Part shown: piece by piece, positions 48,837 to 59,149 of the stretch
How the letters are laid out: every line of letters starts with the position of its first letter
Numbering within the stretch: the first letter of the stretch is position 1
DNA from: an uncultured Syntrophomonadaceae bacterium
GTDB lineage: Bacteria; Bacillota; Dethiobacteria; DTU022; PWGO01
Direction of reading: 5' to 3'
Length of the DNA: 64,000 nt
Assembly (NCBI GenBank): GCA_964636865.1
Contig: CAZWVJ010000006.1
Span: 24,882 to 88,881, forward strand
Notes under the pieces: model-generated
What the model saw: the letters and a program-made list of their open reading frames with translations, nothing else
Databases searched by the model: none
What the model was told of the DNA's origin: nothing
Translations under genes and position numbers: made by a program

Positions 48837-50654
48837 ATGAGTCAGTATAAAGAAAACTCAATTGCAGCGGTTTTTCAGAACAATGCTCAAAAGCTTAAAG
48901 GCAAAACTTATGCTTCTTATCGTAAAAACGGAGAGTACACGGATATTTCCTGGAACGAAATGAACAAAATGGTTAAAAATCTTTCTTATTACCTTATTTC
49001 CAAAGGCATTGCCAAAGGGGATAAGGTTTCTATTTTTGCGGCCAACCGTTACGAATGGCATATGGCAGCTCTTGCTATAACCTCCATAGGCGCAGTGGAT
49101 GTCCCTATTTACTCTACCAATTCCTCAGAAGAAGCAGAATATGTGCTTGAACATTCAGACGCCAAGATGTGTTTGGTGGGCAATAACGATCAATTGGAAC
49201 GAGTCCTTAAAGTTAGGGACAACCTTCCATTGGTGGAAGAATATATTGTATTTGATGAATATAAAGGCAGTGCGGAAGGTGTGAAAACGCTGGGTCAGGT
49301 TTTAAAAGAAGGTGAAGCCAACCCGGCTGAAGAAGAGTTTGATTCCAGGTTAAAATCCATCGAGCCCAACGATCTTTCTACCCTCATTTACACTTCGGGA
49401 ACTACAGGAAAACCCAAAGGAGTTATGCTTACACACAATAATCTTTATTCCAATGTGGCAAACACATTCTACGAAATGAGAGACCGCAATACCGGCGAAT
49501 ATCTAATTACCGAAAACGACGTTTTTCTTTCTTTTCTGCCCCTTTCTCACTCATTGGAAAGAACAGCAGGTTTTCACGGGGCGGTATATGCCGGCGCTAA
49601 AACAGCTTTTGCCTGGGATATAAACACAATTATGGATGACCTGGCAGAAGTAAGACCTACTATCATTATTTGCGTGCCCCGCATTTATGAGAAAATCCAC
49701 GCCGGCATTTACGCGAAGCTGGATGACGCCTCGAACTTGAAGAAAAAAATGTTTACTTTCGCATCCGGACAAGCCAAAAAGAATCTCGAGAAAGTATGCC
49801 GCAACCAGGAAATAACCAGCTTTAGATACAAGCTTGCCGATAAATTGGTGTTTAGCAAATTAAAGGAAACCCTGGGCATGGATCGCTTAAGATATGCCAT
49901 TTCCGGCGGTGCTCCTCTTGCGCCTAGTGACGCAGAATTTTTTATCGGGATGGGACTCAAAATTCTTGAAGGATTCGGGCTTACCGAGACTTCTCCTATC
50001 CTCACTTTCAATCGTCCGTGGTATATAAAGGTTGGCACTGTGGGACAGCCAATTAAAGATACCGAAATTAAAATCGGCGATGACGGGGAAGTCATGGCAA
50101 GGGGACCACAAATTATGGCCGGCTACTATAAAAACGAGGCTGCCACAAAAGAAGCAATAACACCCGAAGGTTTTTATTGCACCGGCGATGTTGGAGCCAT
50201 TGATGAAGAAGGCTTTTTGAAAATCACCGGCCGCATAAAAGATATTATTGTCACTGCCGGCGGAAAAAATATCTCCCCGCAAAATATTGAAAACAATATC
50301 AAAGAATCTCGTTATGTAGAGCAACTAGCCATCATCGGAGATAAGCGCAAGTTCCTCTCTGCTCTCATAGTGCCGGCTTTCCCTGAACTTGAGTCCTGGG
50401 CCAAGCAACAAGGAATCTCTTACTCGAACACGAATGAACTGCTACAAAACCCACAGGTTCAAGATCTATACCGAAAAGAAATTGATGAAAAGACAAAAGA
50501 ATTTGCCCGGGTAGAGCAGATACGTAAATTTACCCTGATCAATGCCGAGTGGACGCAGGAAACGGGAGAACTTACTCCTACCCAGAAGGTGAAAAGAAAA
50601 GTCATCCAGGAAAAATACCACGACTTGATCGAGAAAATGTACGCCGAAGAATAA
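48837..50654 (+). CDS. Long-chain fatty-acid--CoA ligase (AMP-binding enzyme family)
   Basis: 605 aa. AMP-binding signature YTSGTTGKPKGVMLTHNNL. The C-terminal region is typical of LC-FACS-like ligases. Confidence 0.8.
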   Translation: MSQYKENSIAAVFQNNAQKLKGKTYASYRKNGEYTDISWNEMNKMVKNLSYYLISKGIAKGDKVSIFAANRYEWHMAALAITSIGAVDVPIYSTNSSEEAEYVLEHSDAKMCLVGNNDQLERVLKVRDNLPLVEEYIVFDEYKGSAEGVKTLGQVLKEGEANPAEEEFDSRLKSIEPNDLSTLIYTSGTTGKPKGVMLTHNNLYSNVANTFYEMRDRNTGEYLITENDVFLSFLPLSHSLERTAGFHGAVYAGAKTAFAWDINTIMDDLAEVRPTIIICVPRIYEKIHAGIYAKLDDASNLKKKMFTFASGQAKKNLEKVCRNQEITSFRYKLADKLVFSKLKETLGMDRLRYAISGGAPLAPSDAEFFIGMGLKILEGFGLTETSPILTFNRPWYIKVGTVGQPIKDTEIKIGDDGEVMARGPQIMAGYYKNEAATKEAITPEGFYCTGDVGAIDEEGFLKITGRIKDIIVTAGGKNISPQNIENNIKESRYVEQLAIIGDKRKFLSALIVPAFPELESWAKQQGISYSNTNELLQNPQVQDLYRKEIDEKTKEFARVEQIRKFTLINAEWTQETGELTPTQKVKRKVIQEKYHDLIEKMYAEE

Positions 50655-50678
50655 TCAAGCTTCACTCATATAAAAAAA

Positions 50679-50717
50679 GGTGTTAAAGGGGACGGTTCCT
50701 TTTGACACCTTTTTTTT
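50679..50717 (+). terminator. Rho-independent terminator after the acyl-CoA ligase; copy 1 of a recurring palindromic element
   Basis: GGTGTTAAAGG-ggacggtt-CCTTTTGACACC followed by T8. It begins 25 nt after the stop codon. Confidence 0.65.
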
Positions 50718-50779
50718 GGGTTCTTTCGGGATGAGAGTGACAGTGGGGACGGGGCAATTTTGTCACAAAGTTGCTCTCT

Positions 50780-50813
50780 GCCAAAGGGAACGGTTCCTTT
50801 TGGCAGCTTTTTT
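50780..50813 (+). terminator. Second hairpin + T-tract (copy 2 of the same element family)
   Basis: GCCAAAGG-gaacggtt-CCTTTTGGC, then agc and T6. It shares the core GGAACGGTTCCTTTTG with copy 1. Confidence 0.45.
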
Positions 50814-50845
50814 GGGGTACCAAATGCAACCGCCCCCTTTGCTGC

Positions 50846-51340
50846 CTATTTTTTCTTATTCTTATTTTTACTCTTTTTCTTATTCTTATTACCGGAGTTG
50901 TTTTTTGATTTCGCTTTTTGCTGAGAGTTATTATTGGAAGTGCCGGAGCTATTTTTCATAGTATTGCTGTTGTTCTGTTTCTGCTTTTTCTTCTGCTGGT
51001 TTTCCAAGGCCCTCTTCTGCTGTCTGGTGAGATTTTTCTCCTTGGTACGGTTGTTATAAACCTTGTAGCCGGCAGCTCCAACGGCCAGTCCCCCTGCTAA
51101 CACCAAAAAGGGCCAAGCAGCCATCATATCCGTTTCTGCTTCTGTCTCATATTGGGGTTCATCTGGCTCAGGAGTTTCTGTGTCTTCGGATTCTTCCACA
51201 GTCCCCGGATCAGGTATTATTCCATCCTCACCTTCTTCTAAGCATGCCGCACAAGCCATTAATACTCCCGCAGCGAAAATTAAAGCCACCGTAATGAGGC
51301 AACGTTCCCAGATTTTCAACTTTCGAGGATTTTCTTTCAT
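50846..51340 (-). CDS. Small membrane protein with acidic ectodomain and Lys/Asn-rich C-terminal tail (hypothetical)
   Basis: 164 aa. Two hydrophobic helices flank an E/D/T/P-rich loop. The C-terminal 50 aa are K/N/Q/S low complexity. A GGAGGA ribosome-binding site lies upstream. It is the last gene of the His-rich ABC module. Confidence 0.45.
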   Translation of the reverse strand: MKENPRKLKIWERCLITVALIFAAGVLMACAACLEEGEDGIIPDPGTVEESEDTETPEPDEPQYETEAETDMMAAWPFLVLAGGLAVGAAGYKVYNNRTKEKNLTRQQKRALENQQKKKQKQNNSNTMKNSSGTSNNNSQQKAKSKNNSGNKNKKKSKNKNKKK

Positions 51341-51410
51341 TATTACTTATCCTCCAGTTCAAAGAAATAATATAGACCTCGAAAACCTTCTACAAGTAAT
51401 CTCTTTGAAA

Positions 51411-52208
51411 TTAATCCATTCTGGCCATCTCATTGGACCACTCAAAATACTCATCCCAAAGAGCTATTACATCTTCCCTGTATGCAGAAAGGTTTTCTTC
51501 TTCTCCTTCCTCCATGAGTTCATTGATTTCTTCTGCCAGTTCTTTTACTTCTTTTAATATCCCCAAAAGAGGCTCAAAAGAATCTACTCCATACCCTTCC
51601 ACTTGATTGATAAGGGCTTCTATTTCACCTATGTCTATCTGTTCCATCTCCTCTTCGGGCGTTTCCTCGGCGGTATAGGCTTGCATTTCGTTCATGACTC
51701 CCAGAAATTCCATCCCCACTCCATCTGCAGTGAGCATAGCATATTCCTGCAGCGACTGGGGCATTTCATCTTTATCCGCAACCTTCAGGTCATTCACATG
51801 TATACGGAAAGGGGTAGTGTAACCGAATTCATCGGTTTTTTCCTCTACTTCCAACTCGCCGCTAACAGTCACCGGTTCTTCGGTAAATTCAATAGAATCA
51901 CCCGCCGGAGCCATGGCAGGTATGGCAGAAACCGGAATGTCGGTACCAGGTATGCAGTAAGGACACTCTACCATGGGAGCGTTGGTCAAGTAAATAAAAC
52001 TACCGTCCAGCGGTGACTGCATAGCCATAAAACCGGTCATGGATACATTATCTCCATCCAGTTCCTTTACCCTCTGTGAAATGTTAAAGTCTTCATCCCA
52101 CAGCTCGGCAAATTGGAGGTGGGCGCTCTCCCCCGGTTCTCCCTCACATCCTGCTGCAAGCAATAAAACAATTGTAGTGAGAATTATCAGTATTTTTTTC
52201 ATATTCAA
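51411..52208 (-). CDS. Lipoprotein of unknown function (CxxC-containing, acidic C-terminal half)
   Basis: 265 aa. Lipobox LLLAAGC. The mature domain contains ECPYCIPG. The C-terminus is Glu-rich. Its start is 3 nt after the upstream FtsX permease stop. Confidence 0.5.
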   Translation of the reverse strand: MNMKKILIILTTIVLLLAAGCEGEPGESAHLQFAELWDEDFNISQRVKELDGDNVSMTGFMAMQSPLDGSFIYLTNAPMVECPYCIPGTDIPVSAIPAMAPAGDSIEFTEEPVTVSGELEVEEKTDEFGYTTPFRIHVNDLKVADKDEMPQSLQEYAMLTADGVGMEFLGVMNEMQAYTAEETPEEEMEQIDIGEIEALINQVEGYGVDSFEPLLGILKEVKELAEEINELMEEGEEENLSAYREDVIALWDEYFEWSNEMARMD

Positions 52209-52210
52209 CT

Positions 52211-53656
52211 CTATTCTACCTCCAAGGGGTCATGTTTGTAAACAGGAAAAATAGAAATTATCGCTGAAATTACAATAATCGCAAAAACAAGGAGCACCAG
52301 GATAAATTCTCCCGGGTAATGTTTAGCCGGGTCTATCATTATGCCCATTCTGTCTGCCGTAAAATTATTGATCAAGTAAAGCCCTCCGTAGCTTATCAAA
52401 AACGAGATGACGATACTCACCACGGAAATAATTACCGTCTGCAGGACAAACAGGGAAAAAATGGTTTTCCTTTTTATGCCCAGCAAGCGCATGATCAAAA
52501 TATCTTTTTTGCTGTCCTCCACAAATGAGGCCGTGGTCACGTAAATTACTACTGCTGCCATAAACACTATAATAGCGGCTAGAGCAATCAATACATCCCG
52601 CCCCAGGTTAAGGTTGTCCATTAGATCCCTTAAAACAGTGGTCGGATTGACCGCTTGCACGCCGGGCTTTTCATCAAACTGAGACTTCAGCTCCATATGA
52701 GCAGCAAGCCCTTCTGTGTTCACAATTACCGATACCAGGTCGCCGGTAACTTTTTCATCGTGGTCGTGGTTATGAGCGTGGTCATCATCATGGCTGTGAT
52801 CATCATGGTCATTGTGGTCATGGCCGTGCTCATCATCGTGGGTATGTTCGTCTGCATCGTTGTGGTCATCATCGTGATCATGGTCGTGTCCGTTGTGGTA
52901 ATGGTCATCGTGGTCATGGTGATCATCATGGTCATGATCGTTGTGTTCATCGTCGTGTTCGTGGTCTTCATGCTCGTGTTCGTCATGCTCTTCATGGTCG
53001 TGGTCATGATCGTCATGCTCATGTTCGTGGTCGTCATTACAATCGTCGTGGTCATGGTCGTGAATTACCCAAACGCTTTCGGCAGTCGTAAAGATAACAT
53101 TGTCCGAAGCCGTCCCGCTCCGGTCAAGAATCCCTACTACTTCGTATTCAAACTCGTCATGAACATGTCCGTTTTCTCCAAAACCATGCACTCCTACAAA
53201 AATTTCGCCTATCTCTAAAACTCCCGCATCAGCCACATTGTAGCCGATTACAGCTTCTTCGGTCTCCTCAAACATTTCGCCTGCCTTCAACCCATAATCC
53301 TGCAGGTATCCCGGGACTGTGCCAATAATGGGAATCCCCTGATAGGAATCTCCGGCAGCCATGGGATAGGCTTCCCTTACTGAGGGATTGGCTTTTAGTT
53401 CTTCATAGTATTTGTAAGGAATCGTCCCCAGCGGACTTTCCGTGAAAAACATGCTGGAAAAAACTAGTTCCAAGGGGCTACCTTCGGGACCCACAATGGT
53501 ATCATAGTATCCCGCCGTTGAAATAATGCCTTCCTCTACTTGATGAGCAGTATTATAAGTGATCAACGCAATGGTGGTACACAATATAACCGCTATGCAA
53601 GCAAGCAATGCCCGGGTGAACCTGGTCCGAAGATTTTTTAGCGCAAATTTAATCAT
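52211..53656 (-). CDS. FtsX/MacB-family ABC transporter permease with approximately 100-aa His/Asp/Glu-rich insert in the extracytoplasmic domain
   Basis: 481 aa. N-terminal transmembrane helix, large extracytoplasmic (MacB_PCD-like) domain and C-terminal FtsX four-helix bundle. The insert HDHDHDDCNDDHEHEHDDHDHDHEEHDEHEHEDHEHDDEHNDHDHDDHHDHDDHYHNGHDHDHDDDHNDADEHTHDDEHGHDHNDHDDHSHDDDHAHNHDHDEK lies between the periplasmic domain halves. Confidence 0.8.
   Translation of the reverse strand: MIKFALKNLRTRFTRALLACIAVILCTTIALITYNTAHQVEEGIISTAGYYDTIVGPEGSPLELVFSSMFFTESPLGTIPYKYYEELKANPSVREAYPMAAGDSYQGIPIIGTVPGYLQDYGLKAGEMFEETEEAVIGYNVADAGVLEIGEIFVGVHGFGENGHVHDEFEYEVVGILDRSGTASDNVIFTTAESVWVIHDHDHDDCNDDHEHEHDDHDHDHEEHDEHEHEDHEHDDEHNDHDHDDHHDHDDHYHNGHDHDHDDDHNDADEHTHDDEHGHDHNDHDDHSHDDDHAHNHDHDEKVTGDLVSVIVNTEGLAAHMELKSQFDEKPGVQAVNPTTVLRDLMDNLNLGRDVLIALAAIIVFMAAVVIYVTTASFVEDSKKDILIMRLLGIKRKTIFSLFVLQTVIISVVSIVISFLISYGGLYLINNFTADRMGIMIDPAKHYPGEFILVLLVFAIIVISAIISIFPVYKHDPLEVE
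52726..53055. repeat. Low-complexity (CAY/GAY)n codon repeat that encodes the His/Asp tract
   Basis: The plus strand reads GTGGTCRTGRTCATCATG... for about 330 bp. It generates spurious long ORFs on both strands (52655-53218 plus and 52726-53055 minus). Confidence 0.85.
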
Positions 53657-54309
53657 TATTTCCCCACCTCGCTTAATTCAGCATTCAGTTCCGACATCTC
53701 TATAAAGACGTCAAAATGATCTTTCATATCATAATCATGGGAAACGGTTATTACCGGTATATCAAATTTCTGCGCGTAACCTGCCGTCAAGGACATGATC
53801 TCATCGGCTATCTTCTTATTCAGGTTACCGGTGGGTTCATCCGCCAGTAATACAAGGGGATCTTTGATGAGAGCCCTGGCAATAGCCACACGCTGTTTTT
53901 CTCCCACCGAAAGGGTGGTAACTTTCTTTTTCTTTTTAGGCAAAATCCCCATGATTTCAAGCATTTTATCAATATCCAGTGTTTTCCTTAATTCCAATTC
54001 CAGAAGCTTCAAGTTATCTTCTACGGTCATCTGGTCAAGCAGACGGAAGTCCTGGAAAACGTACCCCACGGAACTCAGGCGGTACTCATCCCGCTTTACG
54101 GGCGTCCACCCGGTAATATCTCTCCCATTGACCACAACTTCCCCGGCATCAGCAGGAATCACGCCGGCAATAATGTTTAGCAGGGTAGATTTTCCACATC
54201 CCGAAGGACCAAAAACGAGGTAGCTTACCCCCTTTTCAAATGTGTATTCGGGAATGTCAATAATTTTTTCATTGTCATAGCTTTTTTGCAGGTTTTTGAT
54301 ATAGATCAT
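53656..54309 (-). CDS. ABC transporter ATP-binding protein (MacB/LolD-type, partner of the FtsX permease)
   Basis: 217 aa. Walker A GPSGCGKST, signature LSVGEKQRV and Walker B LLADEPT. The stop overlaps the permease start (ATGA). Confidence 0.85.
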   Translation of the reverse strand: MIYIKNLQKSYDNEKIIDIPEYTFEKGVSYLVFGPSGCGKSTLLNIIAGVIPADAGEVVVNGRDITGWTPVKRDEYRLSSVGYVFQDFRLLDQMTVEDNLKLLELELRKTLDIDKMLEIMGILPKKKKKVTTLSVGEKQRVAIARALIKDPLVLLADEPTGNLNKKIADEIMSLTAGYAQKFDIPVITVSHDYDMKDHFDVFIEMSELNAELSEVGK

Positions 54310-54469
54310 GATTTACCCCCTTTTTTACCTTCCTAAAGTTATTTGTTGCAACTCTTAAAAGGAAAGAATCAAATAGAACATTGCTCAACATTGATCACGT
54401 TTCTTACCTTTAGAGCCTTCTTTTACTTACGTCTTAACTTTTCTTATTTTTCTTCCAAATAATAACAAA

Positions 54470-54506
54470 AGGTGTCAAAAGGAACCGTCCCCTCGGTACC
54501 TTTTGG
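54470..54506 (-). terminator. Hairpin + T-rich tract immediately after znuA (copy 3, inverted, of the recurring element)
   Basis: CAAAAGGAACC-gtcccctc-GGTACCTTTTG. On the minus strand it is followed by ACACCTTTTGTTATTATTT. It contains the reverse complement of the copy-1 core (GGTGTCAAAAGGAACCGTCCCC). Confidence 0.5.
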
Positions 54507-54516
54507 GGTAATGAAA

Positions 54517-55491
54517 TTAGCCAAGGGCTTCCTCCAATTTCATGGTGTTATATAAAAGAAGTTCTATATAGGAATTTCTATTTTCCAGGTCTTCTCCGCC
54601 TAAAGGATCAAGGTAAGCGACCTCGCCCCCGATTTCTTCCGCCAACTGCTTAGCTACTGCCGGGTTAAGCTGGGGTTCGCAAAAAATCACGCAGGCGCCG
54701 ATTTCCTCTGCGACACCAACCAGTTCAGCCATCCAGGCGGCAGAAGGCTCCTGGCCAGGATAAGGCGCTATAACCGCTGCCTCCTCCAGGCCATACCGGT
54801 CCGCAAAATACTTCCAGGCAGAGTGATAGGTAATAAATTGATTGCTATAAAAGTCGGAAACTTTTTTTTCAATCTCGGCATGGGCCTGCGTCAACTGCTG
54901 CGTATAAAGCTCCCGCTGATCGCTGAAATAATCTTCCTTCGCCGGTTCTGCTTCCGCAAGGACTTTTTCGAGCTTGGGCAAGACTTCATCCCTGACCAGT
55001 AGAGGATCCAACCAAATATGGGGATCACCCCCTTCCTTTTTACACGTGGAGGAATGGTCGGAATTGGCAGTTTCCTCATAGAATTTAGATGGAGAAGACG
55101 CTTCCTTGAGCTGAACTCCCTCGGTTAACTCTACTACTTCCAGATCAGAGGGGGCGGCCTCTATCACCTCAGCAGCCCAATCGTCAAGTCCTCCTCCCAC
55201 GTGAACAAATACGTCCGCTCCGGACATCTTTTTCATTTGCTCCACTGTAGGATCAAAAGTGTGAGGACTGGCACCGGAAGGAAGAAGGTAACTCACTTCT
55301 ACTTCTTTCCCACCGATATTCCGGACGATGTCGGCAAGGGGGAAAATTGTGGTAACTACTTTAACACTCTCTTGCTCATTAACACCCCGGGTATTCTCAT
55401 CACAACCGCATACCCAGAAATTAAGGGAAAATAAAGCAACTAATATTATTAATACTGCCGGTTGAAACTTGCGCATTTTTATCACTCTCAA
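54517..55491 (-). CDS. znuA: Metal (zinc-type) ABC transporter substrate-binding lipoprotein, ZnuA/TroA family
   Basis: 324 aa. Lipobox ...LNFWVCGC. Cluster-9 solute-binding protein fold with DPHIWLDP and a flexible acidic/His loop. Context with znuB, znuC and a Fur-family regulator. Confidence 0.8.
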   Translation of the reverse strand: MRVIKMRKFQPAVLIILVALFSLNFWVCGCDENTRGVNEQESVKVVTTIFPLADIVRNIGGKEVEVSYLLPSGASPHTFDPTVEQMKKMSGADVFVHVGGGLDDWAAEVIEAAPSDLEVVELTEGVQLKEASSPSKFYEETANSDHSSTCKKEGGDPHIWLDPLLVRDEVLPKLEKVLAEAEPAKEDYFSDQRELYTQQLTQAHAEIEKKVSDFYSNQFITYHSAWKYFADRYGLEEAAVIAPYPGQEPSAAWMAELVGVAEEIGACVIFCEPQLNPAVAKQLAEEIGGEVAYLDPLGGEDLENRNSYIELLLYNTMKLEEALG

Positions 55492-55508
55492 TTTTTATTG
55501 AAATTTAT

Positions 55509-55525
55509 TTTCAATTTTTCTCATT
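55509..55525. promoter_or_regulatory. 17-bp AT-rich near-palindrome just upstream of znuA (candidate Fur-family/Zur operator)
   Basis: TTGAAATTTATTTTCAA has one mismatch from perfect dyad symmetry. It is 18 nt upstream of the znuA start codon. Confidence 0.3.
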
Positions 55526-55696
55526 TTATAATATTAGCTTCTCTTATGTCAATGCCTTTGAAGTAAATATTAAATGATAATAATTATCAATAATTATAAA
55601 AAAACACCTATAACCTATATCTCTTAGCCATTCTCATTTAAAATATTAAATTATATAGGTCCGGGCATAATATAGCTGCAAGTATGATAGCTTAAC

Positions 55697-56149
55697 TTAA
55701 CTGGAAGCGGAACAATGGGGGCAAAGCCCGTAGGCCACCGTAGAATGGGAGTAAATCTTAAACCTGGTGGACGATTCAATATCTTCCACCAGATGTTTGA
55801 AATTGCAGTTGCCAAACTCTACAATACGCTTGCATTCCATGCACACCAGGTGATGGTGATGGTCTTCGGGAAGGATTATTTCATAACGTTGGCGGCCCTC
55901 GGGAAGTTCCAGGGTGTTAACTATATTCAACTGACGAAGCAGATCCATGGTTCGATAAACCGTAGCCACTCCTATACCGGGGTAATCTTTACTCACCTCA
56001 GAATACAGATCATCAATATCCGGATGCCCTTCGGTATGGATCAAAAATTCAATAATGGCCAGGCGGGGTCCTGTTATTTTATAACCATGGTTCTTAATTT
56101 CATTCTTTATTTTTTCCAACAAAGGCCTAAGCCGTGAATTATTTGCCAT
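55697..56149 (-). CDS. zur: Fur-family metalloregulator (probable Zur)
   Basis: 150 aa. Winged-helix N-terminus, HHHH motif, CxxC pairs (CMEC, CPHC). Embedded in the znu locus. Confidence 0.75.
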   Translation of the reverse strand: MANNSRLRPLLEKIKNEIKNHGYKITGPRLAIIEFLIHTEGHPDIDDLYSEVSKDYPGIGVATVYRTMDLLRQLNIVNTLELPEGRQRYEIILPEDHHHHLVCMECKRIVEFGNCNFKHLVEDIESSTRFKIYSHSTVAYGLCPHCSASS

Positions 56150-56268
56150 TTTTTCCCTTTACTTTCCTTATTTGAATAAAGTAATTGCTATGCTAACCAA
56201 TATTAATATACAACAGAATTAGGCTTAATTAAAGGGTAAAATTAACAATACTTCCAGCTGTCGTTTTT

Positions 56269-57072
56269 TTACCTTTTGTACAACCACGAAAGGCCAAACA
56301 AAACGGTCATGGTAAGCACAATTGAAGCTCCCGAAGGAACATTGAGATAATATGAAATTACCAATCCCCCCAGGCAACCCATCATACCAACCACTACCGC
56401 AATAACAAGCAAAGAGCGGTAATGCCGGGAAAGTCGGTAACCTGTGGCAGCGGGAATGACCAGCAAAGCTGCAGCCAGTACTATACCCACCACCTGCACA
56501 GAAACCATTATGGTAACACCCACAGCTGCCATTAAAGCAAGATAAAGCGGAGTTACAGGCAGGCCACCAGCCACAGCCGCCTCTTCATCAAAACAAATGG
56601 CCAGCAACTCTCTAAAAAATAAAAGGAGGAAAGCCAGCACTACTACCATGGCTACAGCCAGAATAACGAGATCTTGCCGAGACACCGCCAGAATGTTTCC
56701 GAAAAGCAGGGAAAAAAGTTCAGGATAATACCCCCGGGCATAGCTGATAATCCCAATGCCCAAAGCCATACCGGAAGAAAAGAATATCCCGATGATGGTG
56801 TCTTCATTGATACGGGTACTACGGCTAATCTGACCGGTAATTACGGCTACAGCCACCGCAAAAATGCTGCCGGTAAAAACAGGACTTACACCCGAAACCA
56901 GCCCTATGGCAATGCCCCCCAGGGCAGAATGGGATACCCCTACCCCCAGAAAAGAAAGCCGCTTCATTACCACAAAAAAAGAAACTAAAGAACACAACAG
57001 CCCGATCATAATCGCAGCCAGCAAAGCATGTTGCATAAAAGTAAAAGAAAACATCTCAATCATGGTGTTCAT
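56269..57072 (-). CDS. znuB: Metal ABC transporter permease (ABC-3/ZnuB family)
   Basis: 267 aa polytopic membrane protein typical of ZnuB/MntB permeases. It overlaps the upstream ATPase gene by 17 nt. Confidence 0.8.
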   Translation of the reverse strand: MNTMIEMFSFTFMQHALLAAIMIGLLCSLVSFFVVMKRLSFLGVGVSHSALGGIAIGLVSGVSPVFTGSIFAVAVAVITGQISRSTRINEDTIIGIFFSSGMALGIGIISYARGYYPELFSLLFGNILAVSRQDLVILAVAMVVVLAFLLLFFRELLAICFDEEAAVAGGLPVTPLYLALMAAVGVTIMVSVQVVGIVLAAALLVIPAATGYRLSRHYRSLLVIAVVVGMMGCLGGLVISYYLNVPSGASIVLTMTVLFGLSWLYKR

Positions 57073-57805
57073 CTCCCGCCCTTAAATAGTCAAATTGGCA
57101 TTGATACGCATCCTCCAGTTGGGAGCTATGCAAAACATCCGCCGGGTTGCCGTGAATATGCATATACCTGTTAATACATATTAACGAAGTGGCATAAGGG
57201 ATTATGCCGGTGAGTTCATGATAGATAAGCAAAACGGTCATTTGACGTTCTCGCTTCAAGCGGTCCAACAGCTCCATGAAAGATTGTTTGGCCGGAAAAT
57301 CCAGGCCGGCTACCGGTTCATCCAGGAAAAGAATGCGAGGCTGATGAACCATGGCTCTGGCCAAAAGGACCCGCTGCTGCTCTCCTCCGGAAAGTTCCGG
57401 GAAAGGACGGTTGATATAGTTTTCCATCCCCACATCCCTTAACACTTCTTTAACCTTAAGTTCAAGGTTTTTAGACCTCTGTAAAATAGCAGGCGTTTTC
57501 AGGGAAAGAAGTCCCATGGAGACCACATCTCTCACCGAAACGGGGAAACGCTGCTCGTAAGTATGACGCTGGGGCAAGTAACCGATAATATTTTTTGTTT
57601 TCCCAAGTTGATGGGCCGGTTTACCCAGTATCAAAACCCTGCCACTGCGTGTTGGTATTAAACCCAGTAACATCCGCAAAAGAGTGGTCTTCCCTGCTCC
57701 ATTAGGGCCGATTATACCTACTACATCTCCTTGATTGACCTGAAAATTAATATCACTTAAGACCTCTTTCTTGTTTAATTCTACATAGGCGTTTTCTACT
57801 GAAAT
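57056..57805 (-). CDS. znuC: Metal ABC transporter ATP-binding protein (ZnuC-like); the start codon is unresolved
   Basis: Walker A GPNGAGKTTL, signature LSGGEQQRV and Walker B LFLDEP. The reading frame is open upstream to a stop at 57884-57886. The only ATG/GTG/TTG in that stretch is the TTG at 57679 chosen by the track, and it lies inside the Walker A motif. The upper coordinate given here is a provisional ATT codon (encoding LISVENAYVEL...). Confidence 0.55.
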   Translation of the reverse strand: MSVENAYVELNKKEVLSDINFQVNQGDVVGIIGPNGAGKTTLLRMLLGLIPTRSGRVLILGKPAHQLGKTKNIIGYLPQRHTYEQRFPVSVRDVVSMGLLSLKTPAILQRSKNLELKVKEVLRDVGMENYINRPFPELSGGEQQRVLLARAMVHQPRILFLDEPVAGLDFPAKQSFMELLDRLKRERQMTVLLIYHELTGIIPYATSLICINRYMHIHGNPADVLHSSQLEDAYQCQFDYLRAGDEHHD

Positions 57806-58165
57806 GAGCGGGGTATAATCTTTGTCTTTAGGTATCTTAAAAGCAGCGATAAAAAACTCCCCTCTCCAAATATAATCATGATTTCACAACCAGCCGTTCA
57901 TCCATTTAATATTAACAATTCTAACTATTAAAAGCAAAGGAACCGATTATGCTGGGAGTGCGGTTAATATAGCTGCCAAAGGGTTCTTTTTATTTATTAT
58001 TCCCATTTATCTACTAAAATTATACACACCCAATATGCGCCCACTCAGCACCTTCCTAATAATGAAAACTTCCATTGTTACCATAGGGATATTTCAAGTG
58101 GGGATAGAGATTATCTCATCAATTTTCCAGGCCTGATTTCAATGCCCTTTGCATTTGCAATAGGA

Positions 58166-59149
58166 TCACCCGGGAAGAAGTCGATACATCGCTGCAGCTG
58201 CTCTCCGGATAACCTCCACCTTTCGCGAACGTAGAGGCATCCGGGGGTATGCGCCGGAAACTACTTCCAACCACTTTTCCGGATTAGATGCATTAAGTAT
58301 TCCTTCCAGGCTAAATATAGCAATGTCTTGGACGCCTGCTTCCAGGGCAGCTTCAATATCCGGAAGCATTTCTTCCGGATATTGATAATAAGGCTCATTT
58401 CCCAATTTTCCGGTGGAAGTCAGCCCCACCGAAACAGCAGCCCGTTTTCCCAATACAGCCTTTATATTCAAGCAAAGCAAATAAAGATACCAGCGCGCAT
58501 CTCCGAGGCTAATAAATTCCCGGGACATCCCCGTAATCAAAGTATTGTACTGCATAAAAGAAATAACATCCCAATTTACAGGGCTTAAAGGGGTTTCCAG
58601 GTAATCCTGTAATTTCACCGATCCTTTCATAATATCGATTTCCAGCAGAGGAATGGCGGGGACAATAGTTTGGCACCCTTGCATCATAATATAATCTTGC
58701 AAATCTCGATATGTTTCAACTGCCCGATTAAAGCGCTCCCGGTTTCTGTTAGAATTGAAAATTTGCCACATCTTGCCGGCTTTTTGTAACCCCTCAGCAC
58801 TGCTGATCTCTGTGTGTTGATAATAAGGGGGTTCCAAATCTACTGCCAGCCAAGGAATTTTCACCCCTTCTTTATCCGCCCATTTAAAAATCTCTTTTAC
58901 ATAAGACGCAAACTCTTCGCAGTTTCTTTCGTTGGGCCAGTAACCTTGCTCATCGCTCATAGTCGGCCATAAGGCAGGTTCAAGTCCTGCGTCCCTATAT
59001 TTTCTCATAAGCTTTGCATAATCTTTCCCCAAATTACCGCGGGAAACAGCAATGCAGGGATTTACTCCATAATGCTGCAGTAGATATACTACTTCCGACT
59101 TGATTAACTCACCCGGGGGAAGAAATTCCGCCCACGCCCTCAAGATCAT
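58166..59149 (-). CDS. Hypothetical protein (possibly glycoside-hydrolase-like TIM barrel)
   Basis: 327 aa. No recognisable signature motif. Alternating beta/alpha character. Function unknown. Confidence 0.35.
   Translation of the reverse strand: MILRAWAEFLPPGELIKSEVVYLLQHYGVNPCIAVSRGNLGKDYAKLMRKYRDAGLEPALWPTMSDEQGYWPNERNCEEFASYVKEIFKWADKEGVKIPWLAVDLEPPYYQHTEISSAEGLQKAGKMWQIFNSNRNRERFNRAVETYRDLQDYIMMQGCQTIVPAIPLLEIDIMKGSVKLQDYLETPLSPVNWDVISFMQYNTLITGMSREFISLGDARWYLYLLCLNIKAVLGKRAAVSVGLTSTGKLGNEPYYQYPEEMLPDIEAALEAGVQDIAIFSLEGILNASNPEKWLEVVSGAYPRMPLRSRKVEVIRRAAAAMYRLLPG

Follow-up and report, generated by a model that had tools for sequence, protein, structure and literature searches.

Zur-regulated, MacB-like ATP-binding cassette (ABC) systems with a DUF3299 partner are known from Vibrio (ZrgABCDE) and Pseudomonas aeruginosa (PA4063-PA4066) (PMC9820375, PMC9817125, PMC11481552). 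The zrgABCDE operon is Zur-repressed and aids growth under zinc limitation (PMC9820375, PMC9817125), and PA4063-66 is repressed by zinc (PMC11481552). The work on these systems raised the question of how the MacB fold, known only for export and mechanotransmission, supports zinc acquisition. The present analysis concerns a module of four genes, encoding an ABC ATPase, a permease, a lipoprotein and a small Lys-tailed membrane protein, in a stretch of 64,000 nucleotides from an uncultured Syntrophomonadaceae bacterium (contig CAZWVJ010000006.1, positions 24,882 to 88,881; referred to as the window, in which positions are counted from its first letter). On the whole, the evidence leans towards the module being a Zrg-type ABC machine under the control of the adjacent Fur-family (Zur-type) repressor, with an auxiliary part in the acquisition or hand-over of scarce zinc. 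An earlier note on the same DNA had taken it for an uncharacterised machine; it does have a precedent, as the permease falls in the Zrg clade studied in Vibrio and Pseudomonas. The module is not categorically new, but a previously undescribed Gram-positive, ZrgA-less variant of the Zrg/PA4063-PA4066 kind; a literature search returned no paper on a His-rich FtsX protein together with Zur, nor on such Gram-positive systems.

The four minus-strand open reading frames (ORFs) listed in the earlier note are all present, and much of what it read from them stands. Pfam searches find ABC_tran in the ATPase (E 4e-33) and MacB_PCD (residues 21-195) and FtsX (residues 358-475) in the permease, in line with the claimed MacB/LolD-type ATPase and FtsX-family permease. 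The lipoprotein carries a lipobox (LAAGC), and its CPYC (C82/C85), the claimed CxxC, is invariant. PF01297 and FUR matches upstream on the same strand place the module directly 3' of znuA and near a Fur-family regulator, and copies of a palindromic terminator-like element bracket it, at 54476-54505 on one side and at 50672-50716 and 50778-50806 on the other. The eight genes thus have the same-strand order znuC-znuB-fur-znuA, then ATPase-permease-lipoprotein-small gene. A tight operon with junctions of 0 to 3 nt had also been claimed. This is correct for the ATPase, permease and lipoprotein genes, with a 1-nt overlap (TAATG) at the ATPase/permease junction and a spacing of 2 nt between permease and lipoprotein, but not for the small gene, which starts 70 nt past the lipoprotein gene and has its own GGAGGA ribosome-binding site.

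The AlphaFold2 (AF2) model of the permease (predicted local distance difference test score, pLDDT, 79.5) has helices at residues 2-47, 338-381, 396-436 and 448-474, corresponding to four transmembrane (TM) segments, with an outside domain rich in beta structure inserted after TM1 and before TM2. A Foldseek search of this model against the Protein Data Bank (PDB) gave 49 matches at E ≤ 1e-3, headed by MacB (5gko, E 1e-13) and followed by LolCDE, 5xu1 (Spr0694-5), YtrEF and HrtB; on these matches the permease is, by its predicted fold, assigned to the type VII (MacB/FtsX-fold) ABC permeases. A profile of 55 Firmicute homologues scored 236-248 bits on the permeases of Zrg operons, for which the reference set was taken from operons also encoding Pfam ZrgA and DUF3299, 160-244 bits on the permeases of cassettes linked to the alkaline phosphatase PhoA, and 31-36 bits on ordinary MacB_PCD/FtsX paralogues of related genomes. 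Judged by the scores on the Zrg permeases as against those on the ordinary paralogues, the permease belongs specifically to the Zrg-like (ZrgB/PA4065) clade. When annotated plasmids were searched with the permease, its His/Asp tract removed, two kinds of relatives only were found, the Zrg operons and the PhoA-linked cassettes. The Phaeobacter operon has the order Fur-family regulator, ZrgA (PF10986), ATPase, permease and DUF3299, and the Catenovulum operon consists of DUF3299, ATPase and permease. In the PhoA-linked cassettes of Deinococcus radiodurans MP1, Thermus, Paracoccus and Ensifer (loci L015 1695-6188, L016 2075-6182, L017 2035-6269 and L020 1292-5203), genes for a protein of about 150 aa, an ATPase and a permease lie directly 3' of a gene for a PF00245 alkaline phosphatase.

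The most conspicuous feature of the permease is a tract of 105 aa with 37 His and 51 Asp/Glu residues, which is disordered in the AF2 model and, lying between TM1 and TM2, extracytoplasmic. Its DNA is made up of degenerate repeats of 9, 12, 15 and 21 nt. The 481-aa permease was recovered identically in independent assemblies from three sequencing runs, so that the tract is no assembly artefact. A His/Asp/Glu tract of 10-167 aa is found at the same extracytoplasmic site in all Firmicute permease homologues (61/61), those of human-gut Clostridia included. Its length varies greatly even among close relatives, being 44 aa in P0288-P0290, which are 79% identical, 111 aa in P0287 and 167 aa, with 64 His, in the 543-aa P0298; the tracts of P0292 and P0345 contain many Cys residues. 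In the outside domain, H157, H166 and D185 are invariant in the Firmicute set, and D103 and H199 are kept in 95-98% of it. H157, H199, D103 and D185 are also present in each of six Zrg and PhoA-linked permeases. The family-wide His tracts and the invariant His and Asp residues point to direct metal contact.

The degenerate repeats give rise to spurious ORFs in other frames over the tract DNA. Two such ORFs, one of 187 aa rich in V, I and M (52655-53218, plus strand) and one of 109 aa rich in T and M (52726-53055, minus strand), were rejected as genes and are regarded as artefacts of the repetitive CAT/GAT-type DNA. An Rfam search of 50400-58400 detected no riboswitch, the NiCo riboswitch included; the sole match, a weak and meaningless one to the MIR7724 miRNA family (52764-52944), is a by-product of the same CAT/GAT-type repeats.

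The ATPase is translationally coupled to the permease and qualifies as its cognate FtsE/LolD/MacB-type subunit; ATPase, permease and lipoprotein are kept together in every related locus and are referred to below as the triad. The NCBIfam matches of the ATPase are to FtsE/LolD/DevA-type families and are all under the family cut-offs. The top one is a lactococcin-972-type bacteriocin export family, and at 171 bits against a curated cut-off of 255 a role in bacteriocin export was rejected. Fold and topology, and an FtsE/LolD-type ATPase, are shared with MacAB-TolC, LolCDE, FtsEX, HrtBA, BceAB and YtrEF. The module differs from these type VII systems in lacking a membrane-fusion adaptor, an EnvC/PcsB-type hydrolase activator and a two-component partner, and in having the His/Asp site and the His tract. 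FtsEX was rejected on the scores of FtsX_actino (48.6 bits, cut-off 250) and FtsE (149 bits, cut-off 265), and LolCDE on those of lolCE (26.8 bits, cut-off 362) and LolD (130 bits, cut-off 308). An efflux pump of the MacAB/YknXYZ type was rejected as the module has no MacA/YknX adaptor, and no domain of the membrane-fusion protein (MFP)/HlyD type was found by Pfam in any module protein.

The lipoprotein is modelled by AF2 (pLDDT 81.7) as an N-terminal OB-like beta domain (about residues 30-145), which holds the CPYC, and a C-terminal helical bundle (about residues 150-261). Its family comprises 16 proteins by word-indexed search and 411 cluster representatives by exhaustive profile search. HHalign of a 135-sequence profile of the lipoprotein against a DUF3299 alignment gave E 1.6e-4 and a probability of 51% over 102 columns, with C82 paired to the invariant Cys of DUF3299; the DUF3299 alignment used was shallow, because the homologue search gave only close Rhodobacterales relatives. 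The partners in more distant triads match PF11736 at E 9e-4 to 0.016, below its cut-off. The 152-aa partner in Deinococcus, with CPFC, is a clear homologue of the N-terminal domain of the lipoprotein (HHalign 99.4%, E 6e-22; tblastn E 6e-16). Taken together, the HHalign result, the PF11736 matches of the distant partners and the conserved neighbourhood suggest that the lipoprotein may be a remote member of the DUF3299 superfamily (ZrgE/PA4066), an assignment that is inconclusive by strict family criteria.

Like ZrgABCDE and PA4063-PA4066, the module has a split ATPase, a four-TM permease of the same clade, the outside domain of which is large and has the same residues H157, H199, D103 and D185, and linkage to a Fur-family regulator; its partner protein may be a remote relative of DUF3299. 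A small membrane protein is also encoded in both operons, ZrgD being of 101 aa with a single TM segment (PMC9820375). Two features that belong to the published definition of the operon, ZrgA and DUF2607, are absent here. The His/Asp tract is inside the permease, in place of a separate His-rich periplasmic protein (ZrgA/DUF2796), and no ZrgA (PF10986) match was found among the four module proteins and four neighbours, while the lowest E obtained in a tblastn search of the whole window with a Pfam-confirmed ZrgA was 0.34. The partner is a lipoprotein, has CPYC for the GAC-H-PPPP motif of DUF3299 and an extra C-terminal helical bundle, and is below the Pfam DUF3299 threshold. The host is Gram-positive, and therefore has no periplasm or outer membrane. 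Disordered, His-rich extracytoplasmic segments of variable length are known from ZnuA, AdcA, ZinT and ZrgA (PMC9820375, PMC8561739); in contrast to those loops, the tract here is part of a membrane permease and is far longer (105 aa, and 167 aa in one relative). The PhoA-linked cassettes have the closest non-Firmicute permeases (29-33% identity, E 1e-28) and a homologous partner domain, but their partner gene comes first, their permease has no His tract, their partner no C-terminal helical domain, and their neighbour is alkaline phosphatase instead of znuA and fur.

The small protein begins with a lipobox-like N-terminus that has a CxxC, continues with an acidic ectodomain and a further TM helix, and ends in a cytoplasmic tail rich in Lys and Asn. 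With its two hydrophobic segments and Lys tail it is unlike ZrgD (DUF2607), the likeness being that of a small membrane protein only, and it has no DUF2607 match in Pfam even at E ≤ 10. By sequence comparison it is a real gene; 24 synonymous and 23 non-synonymous codon differences separate it from its counterpart in locus L004. It occurs only in the znu-linked lineage, and in the sister lineage (locus L027) it is 45% identical and has the same layout. The Cys-x-x-Cys lies directly at the lipobox-like site of the N-terminus (51238-51340), reads CAAC here and CPAC in L027 (8322-8400), and is followed by a very acidic stretch. It is possible that it forms a second extracytoplasmic thiol or metal site of the module.

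The link with zinc homeostasis that the earlier note had drawn for this type VII system is supported by its relatives and their neighbourhoods, in addition to the tracts in all 61 homologues. In L027, the permease of which is 79% identical, all eight genes are present in the order znuC-znuB-fur-znuA-ATPase-permease-lipoprotein-small, and a palindromic box, TGATAAATTTTATCA, separates the -10 element of znuA from its start codon. In locus L024 an orthologue of the regulator (66% identical) is immediately upstream of the triad, the promoter of which (TTGACA-17-TAGAAT) is flanked by the boxes TGATAATGCTTATCA and TGATAATTGTTATCA, three matches being found against 0.12 expected. In locus L026 a different Fur-family gene is upstream of the triad. 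In the window, the perfect Fur-type box at the znuA promoter (Table 1) is the single exact match in 64 kb. The neighbours fit a ZnuABC-type zinc importer of cluster A-I, with a binding protein of the ZnuA fold, an ABC-3 permease and an ATPase. They miss all NCBIfam equivalog cut-offs, so that the choice between zinc and manganese is made through nearest relatives only; the solved proteins nearest ZnuA (B. subtilis YcdH, Synechocystis ZnuA, Lmb and AdcA) are all zinc binders. From this context the regulator is taken to be Zur-type. The znuA promoter probably also drives the downstream module. The boxes would then always head the unit, be it znuA plus module or the module alone, and the module here would be read through from the znuA promoter, which is the simplest way to reconcile the boxes of L024, L027 and the window with the empty gap between znuA and the ATPase gene.

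Several findings weigh against a Zrg-type machine under the control of this repressor. The 207-nt gap between znuA and the ATPase gene (54310-54516) has no box of the Fur or Zur type, and no sigma-70-like promoter was called in it on the minus strand. A hairpin with a U-rich tail is found 3' of znuA, of -18.7 kcal/mol but with a z-score of only -1.56. With the gap devoid of box and promoter and a hairpin after znuA, co-regulation here relies on assumed read-through. Furthermore, the gap of L027 shows no conservation with that of the window, so that no shared operator can be defined. The regulator, called zur in the earlier note, is of the Fur family by sequence, but the Zur label comes from context, and its sequence is nearer to solved Fur and PerR proteins than to Zur. 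The remote-homology search proposed for the lipoprotein led, through HHalign, to DUF3299 and not further: no useful Pfam or NCBIfam match appeared even at E up to 10, ten distant representatives of its family had no Pfam match, and PDB-sequence searches with the 16- and 135-sequence profiles did not recover 4hsp and returned just helical-bundle noise. In the majority of other loci the homologous triad has no neighbour related to metals, and in 12 other loci no box is found upstream of the triad, weak matches aside. The co-occurrence with metal genes proposed as a check is seen in the Fur-family links of L027, L024 and L026, but not for most triads. Homologues conserved without metal-related neighbours, and with a characterised non-metal substrate, had been named as evidence to the contrary; the former are thus found, but none of the members is known to have a non-metal substrate. 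In a Dethiobacter metagenome-assembled genome (MAG) termed CROMO (locus L012, 7101-7854), the triad is divergent from an HTH_5 regulator gene of the ArsR/SmtB family, which is followed by a truncated ABC_tran fragment. Regulators of this type are more typical of efflux. No import pathway is known for transporters of the MacB fold. Finally, P. aeruginosa PA4064-PA4065 has been reinterpreted as a pyochelin-cobalt exporter (PMC11481552).

Under the zinc-acquisition reading, the regulator would bind the Fur-type boxes at the znuA promoter when zinc is sufficient, and on zinc limitation znuA would be expressed, together with the four module genes by read-through past the weak hairpin. The disordered 105-residue tract may act as a low-affinity, high-capacity zinc antenna, the role of the His-rich loops of ZrgA in Gram-negatives. 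From it, zinc may be handed to a predicted site of H157, H166, H199, D103 and D185, to the CPYC of the docked DUF3299-like lipoprotein, or to both. Hydrolysis by the ATPase dimer would drive MacB-style mechanotransmission, by which the metal would either cross the membrane or be passed to ZnuA and then imported. The small Lys-tailed protein would be a lineage-specific accessory. We infer the direction of transport and the substrate, the zinc dependence of the module being taken from the literature on its homologues.

Another way to read the same components, which we consider unlikely, is that the module is an extracytoplasmic zinc chaperone or 'insertase', which loads clients at the expense of ATP (ZnuA here; PhoA in Deinococcus, Thermus, Paracoccus and Ensifer) and moves no metal across the membrane. 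The conserved core in Firmicutes, Deinococcota and Proteobacteria would then be no transporter but an ATP-powered metallochaperone that forces zinc onto exported clients, a generalisation for which we see the same small chance. All the conserved His and Asp residues are in the outside domain and the module is directly 3' of znuA, as such loading would have it. In four unrelated plasmids or chromids, a homologous set is directly 3' of a gene for a PF00245 alkaline phosphatase, which is a Zn2Mg enzyme; this linkage raises the possibility that members of the family insert metal into exported zinc enzymes. The fold matched by Foldseek agrees as well, since MacB-fold systems act by mechanotransmission on extracytoplasmic substrates (PMC9820375, PMC11481552). 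On the other hand, Vibrio zrg supports growth without znuA (PMC9820375), which argues for autonomous uptake in the Vibrio branch, and the triads of L024 and L026 adjoin a Fur-family gene with no client alongside. If real, such a chaperone would add a class with a new function to the mechanotransmission machines, and would account for the genetic behaviour of the fold as a zinc-acquisition system in spite of its having no import pathway.

It appears improbable that the module is a pump for metal efflux or detoxification, in which tract and ATPase would remove surplus Zn, Co or Ni from the membrane surface or sequester it. The fold family, as represented by the Foldseek matches, consists mostly of exporters and extractors, the Dethiobacter CROMO homologue is divergent from the ArsR/SmtB-family gene and near an RND/MFP-type system, and the homologue in P. 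aeruginosa keeps the accumulation of cobalt down (PMC11481552). Yet Fur-family repressors, and boxes at uptake-gene promoters, are found in three lineages, the neighbour here is a zinc importer and not a gene of the czc, cad or zntA type, and the module has no membrane-fusion adaptor gene. Acquisition under zinc limitation is thus likelier than the 'storage or efflux' of the earlier note, the regulators being Fur-family and repressor-type with boxes on the promoters of uptake genes. It is quite improbable that the module exports a metallophore, small molecule or peptide under metal limitation, or is an immunity ABC system against bacteriocins or antimicrobial peptides that lies near znu by coincidence. 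Pyochelin-cobalt export has indeed been proposed for the Pseudomonas homologue, and the best, though sub-threshold, NCBIfam match of the ATPase is the bacteriocin export family mentioned above; but neither here nor in about 15 related loci is the module flanked by biosynthesis genes of the metallophore, NRPS or bacteriocin kind, and the family-wide His tracts and invariant His and Asp residues point to direct metal contact. Very improbable, lastly, is the same machine with specificity for nickel or cobalt instead of zinc. Long His-rich tracts are also typical of the Ni-handling proteins HypB, UreE and Hpn, and the Fur family includes Ni sensors. Hydrogenase and CODH/ACS are among the Ni enzymes on which Dethiobacter-like organisms depend (PMC6146748), and the P. 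aeruginosa system affects cobalt (PMC11481552). These points are opposed by the co-located binding protein, zinc-type by its nearest solved relatives, by the Zur regulation of the Zrg homologues (PMC9817125), and by the Rfam search, in which a NiCo riboswitch was not detected.

As a variant of the Zrg kind, the module delimits a conserved core, which consists of the ATPase, the permease with four invariant or near-invariant outside His and Asp residues, and the DUF3299-like partner. ZrgA would accordingly be dispensable, or replaceable by a His tract embedded in the permease. The reach of the family is widened to the Firmicutes, including human-gut Clostridia, and to the Deinococcota, and a testable function is given to a family that comprises over 400 sequence clusters and had no annotation. 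Having no outer membrane, the host also offers a simpler system for biochemical and structural work.

Table 1. Positions of the module genes, their neighbours and the associated control elements in the window
Feature	Position	Strand	Basis or remark
znuC-like ABC ATPase, cluster A-I metal importer	57056-57850	-	Probable non-canonical start ATC at 57850
znuB-like permease, ABC-3 family	56269-57072	-	PF00950 E 1e-72; NCBIfam AztB/ZnuB-like
Fur-family regulator, Zur-like by context	55697-56149	-	FUR Pfam E 1e-32
Perfect Fur-type 7-1-7 box TGATAATAATTATCA, 5' of the znuA -35 element	55575-55589		Motif search
znuA sigma-70-like promoter TTGACA-18-TAAAAT	55523-55552	-	11/12 match
Second palindromic box TGAAATTTATTTTCA, between znuA -10 and start codon	55499-55513		1 mismatch to TGAAAATNATTTTCA
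znuA, cluster A-I zinc-type substrate-binding lipoprotein	54517-55491	-	PF01297 E 1e-70
Palindromic hairpin with U-rich tail in znuA/module gap; possible leaky terminator or attenuator	54460-54505	-	-18.7 kcal/mol, z-score -1.56
ABC ATPase of the module (ZrgC/PA4064 counterpart)	53656-54309	-	217 aa; ORF list, Pfam/NCBIfam
Type VII (MacB/FtsX-fold) permease, Zrg-like clade	52211-53656	-	481 aa; Pfam, AF2, Foldseek, profile scores
His/Asp tract of the permease, residues 200-304	52745-53059	-	Composition, AF2 disorder, DNA repeats
Lipoprotein with CPYC	51411-52208	-	265 aa
Small Lys-tailed membrane protein	50846-51340	-	164 aa
Two palindromic terminator-like hairpins, shared with convergent acyl-CoA synthetase gene	50672-50716, 50778-50806		z-scores -4.3, -4.2

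The hairpins that bracket the module share a palindrome core of which the 64 kb contain four copies where 0.08 would be expected, and the palindromic element, CAAAAGGAACCGTCCCCT, is confined to the surroundings of the module (50672-50838 and 54476-54505). In the znuA-ATPase gap of L027 (5320-5375), three tandem copies of a unit of about 17 nt, TTGACCCTTTACCGGTA, are found in place of the palindrome. The elements in the gap thus differ from one lineage to the other, and the spacer between znuA and the ATPase gene turns over quickly.

The znuC-like gene has an unusual 5' end. An in-frame stop is present at 57886, and no ATG, GTG or TTG follows until the TTG at 57679, which is past the Walker A motif GPNGAGKTT. 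A ribosome-binding site, GGAGAGGGGAG, precedes an in-frame ATC at 57850, which suggests a non-canonical start, or else a frameshift in the T-run. The znuC homologue in L027 is a normal protein of 250 aa.

The closest genome match is the MAG B1Sed10_75, named 'Syntrophomonadaceae bacterium', and Dethiobacter MAGs are more distant. MAGs of the Dethiobacter/Syntrophomonadaceae type come from hypersaline soda-lake sediments (PMC6146748), and we infer a soda-lake origin for the present window as well. The extreme growth of the tract in soda-lake organisms may be linked to the scarcity of free zinc in alkaline, sulfidic brines.

Two further observations concern related loci. In the Dethiobacter CROMO MAG, a separate efflux-type system of MFP, ATPase and two FtsX proteins is located 600 nt downstream. 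In MAGs of human-gut Clostridia, the gene ahead of the triad encodes a conserved protein of about 97 aa (L008 1194-1487; L009 5487-5801; L010 3435-3728; L011 4831-5124), which has a membrane segment, an H-E-C-I-G-x-x-C-T-I-C motif and no Pfam match. Between its gene and that of the ATPase there is no palindrome in L010, a related one in L009, and the conserved palindrome ACAAAAATATTTTTTGT in both L008 and L011.

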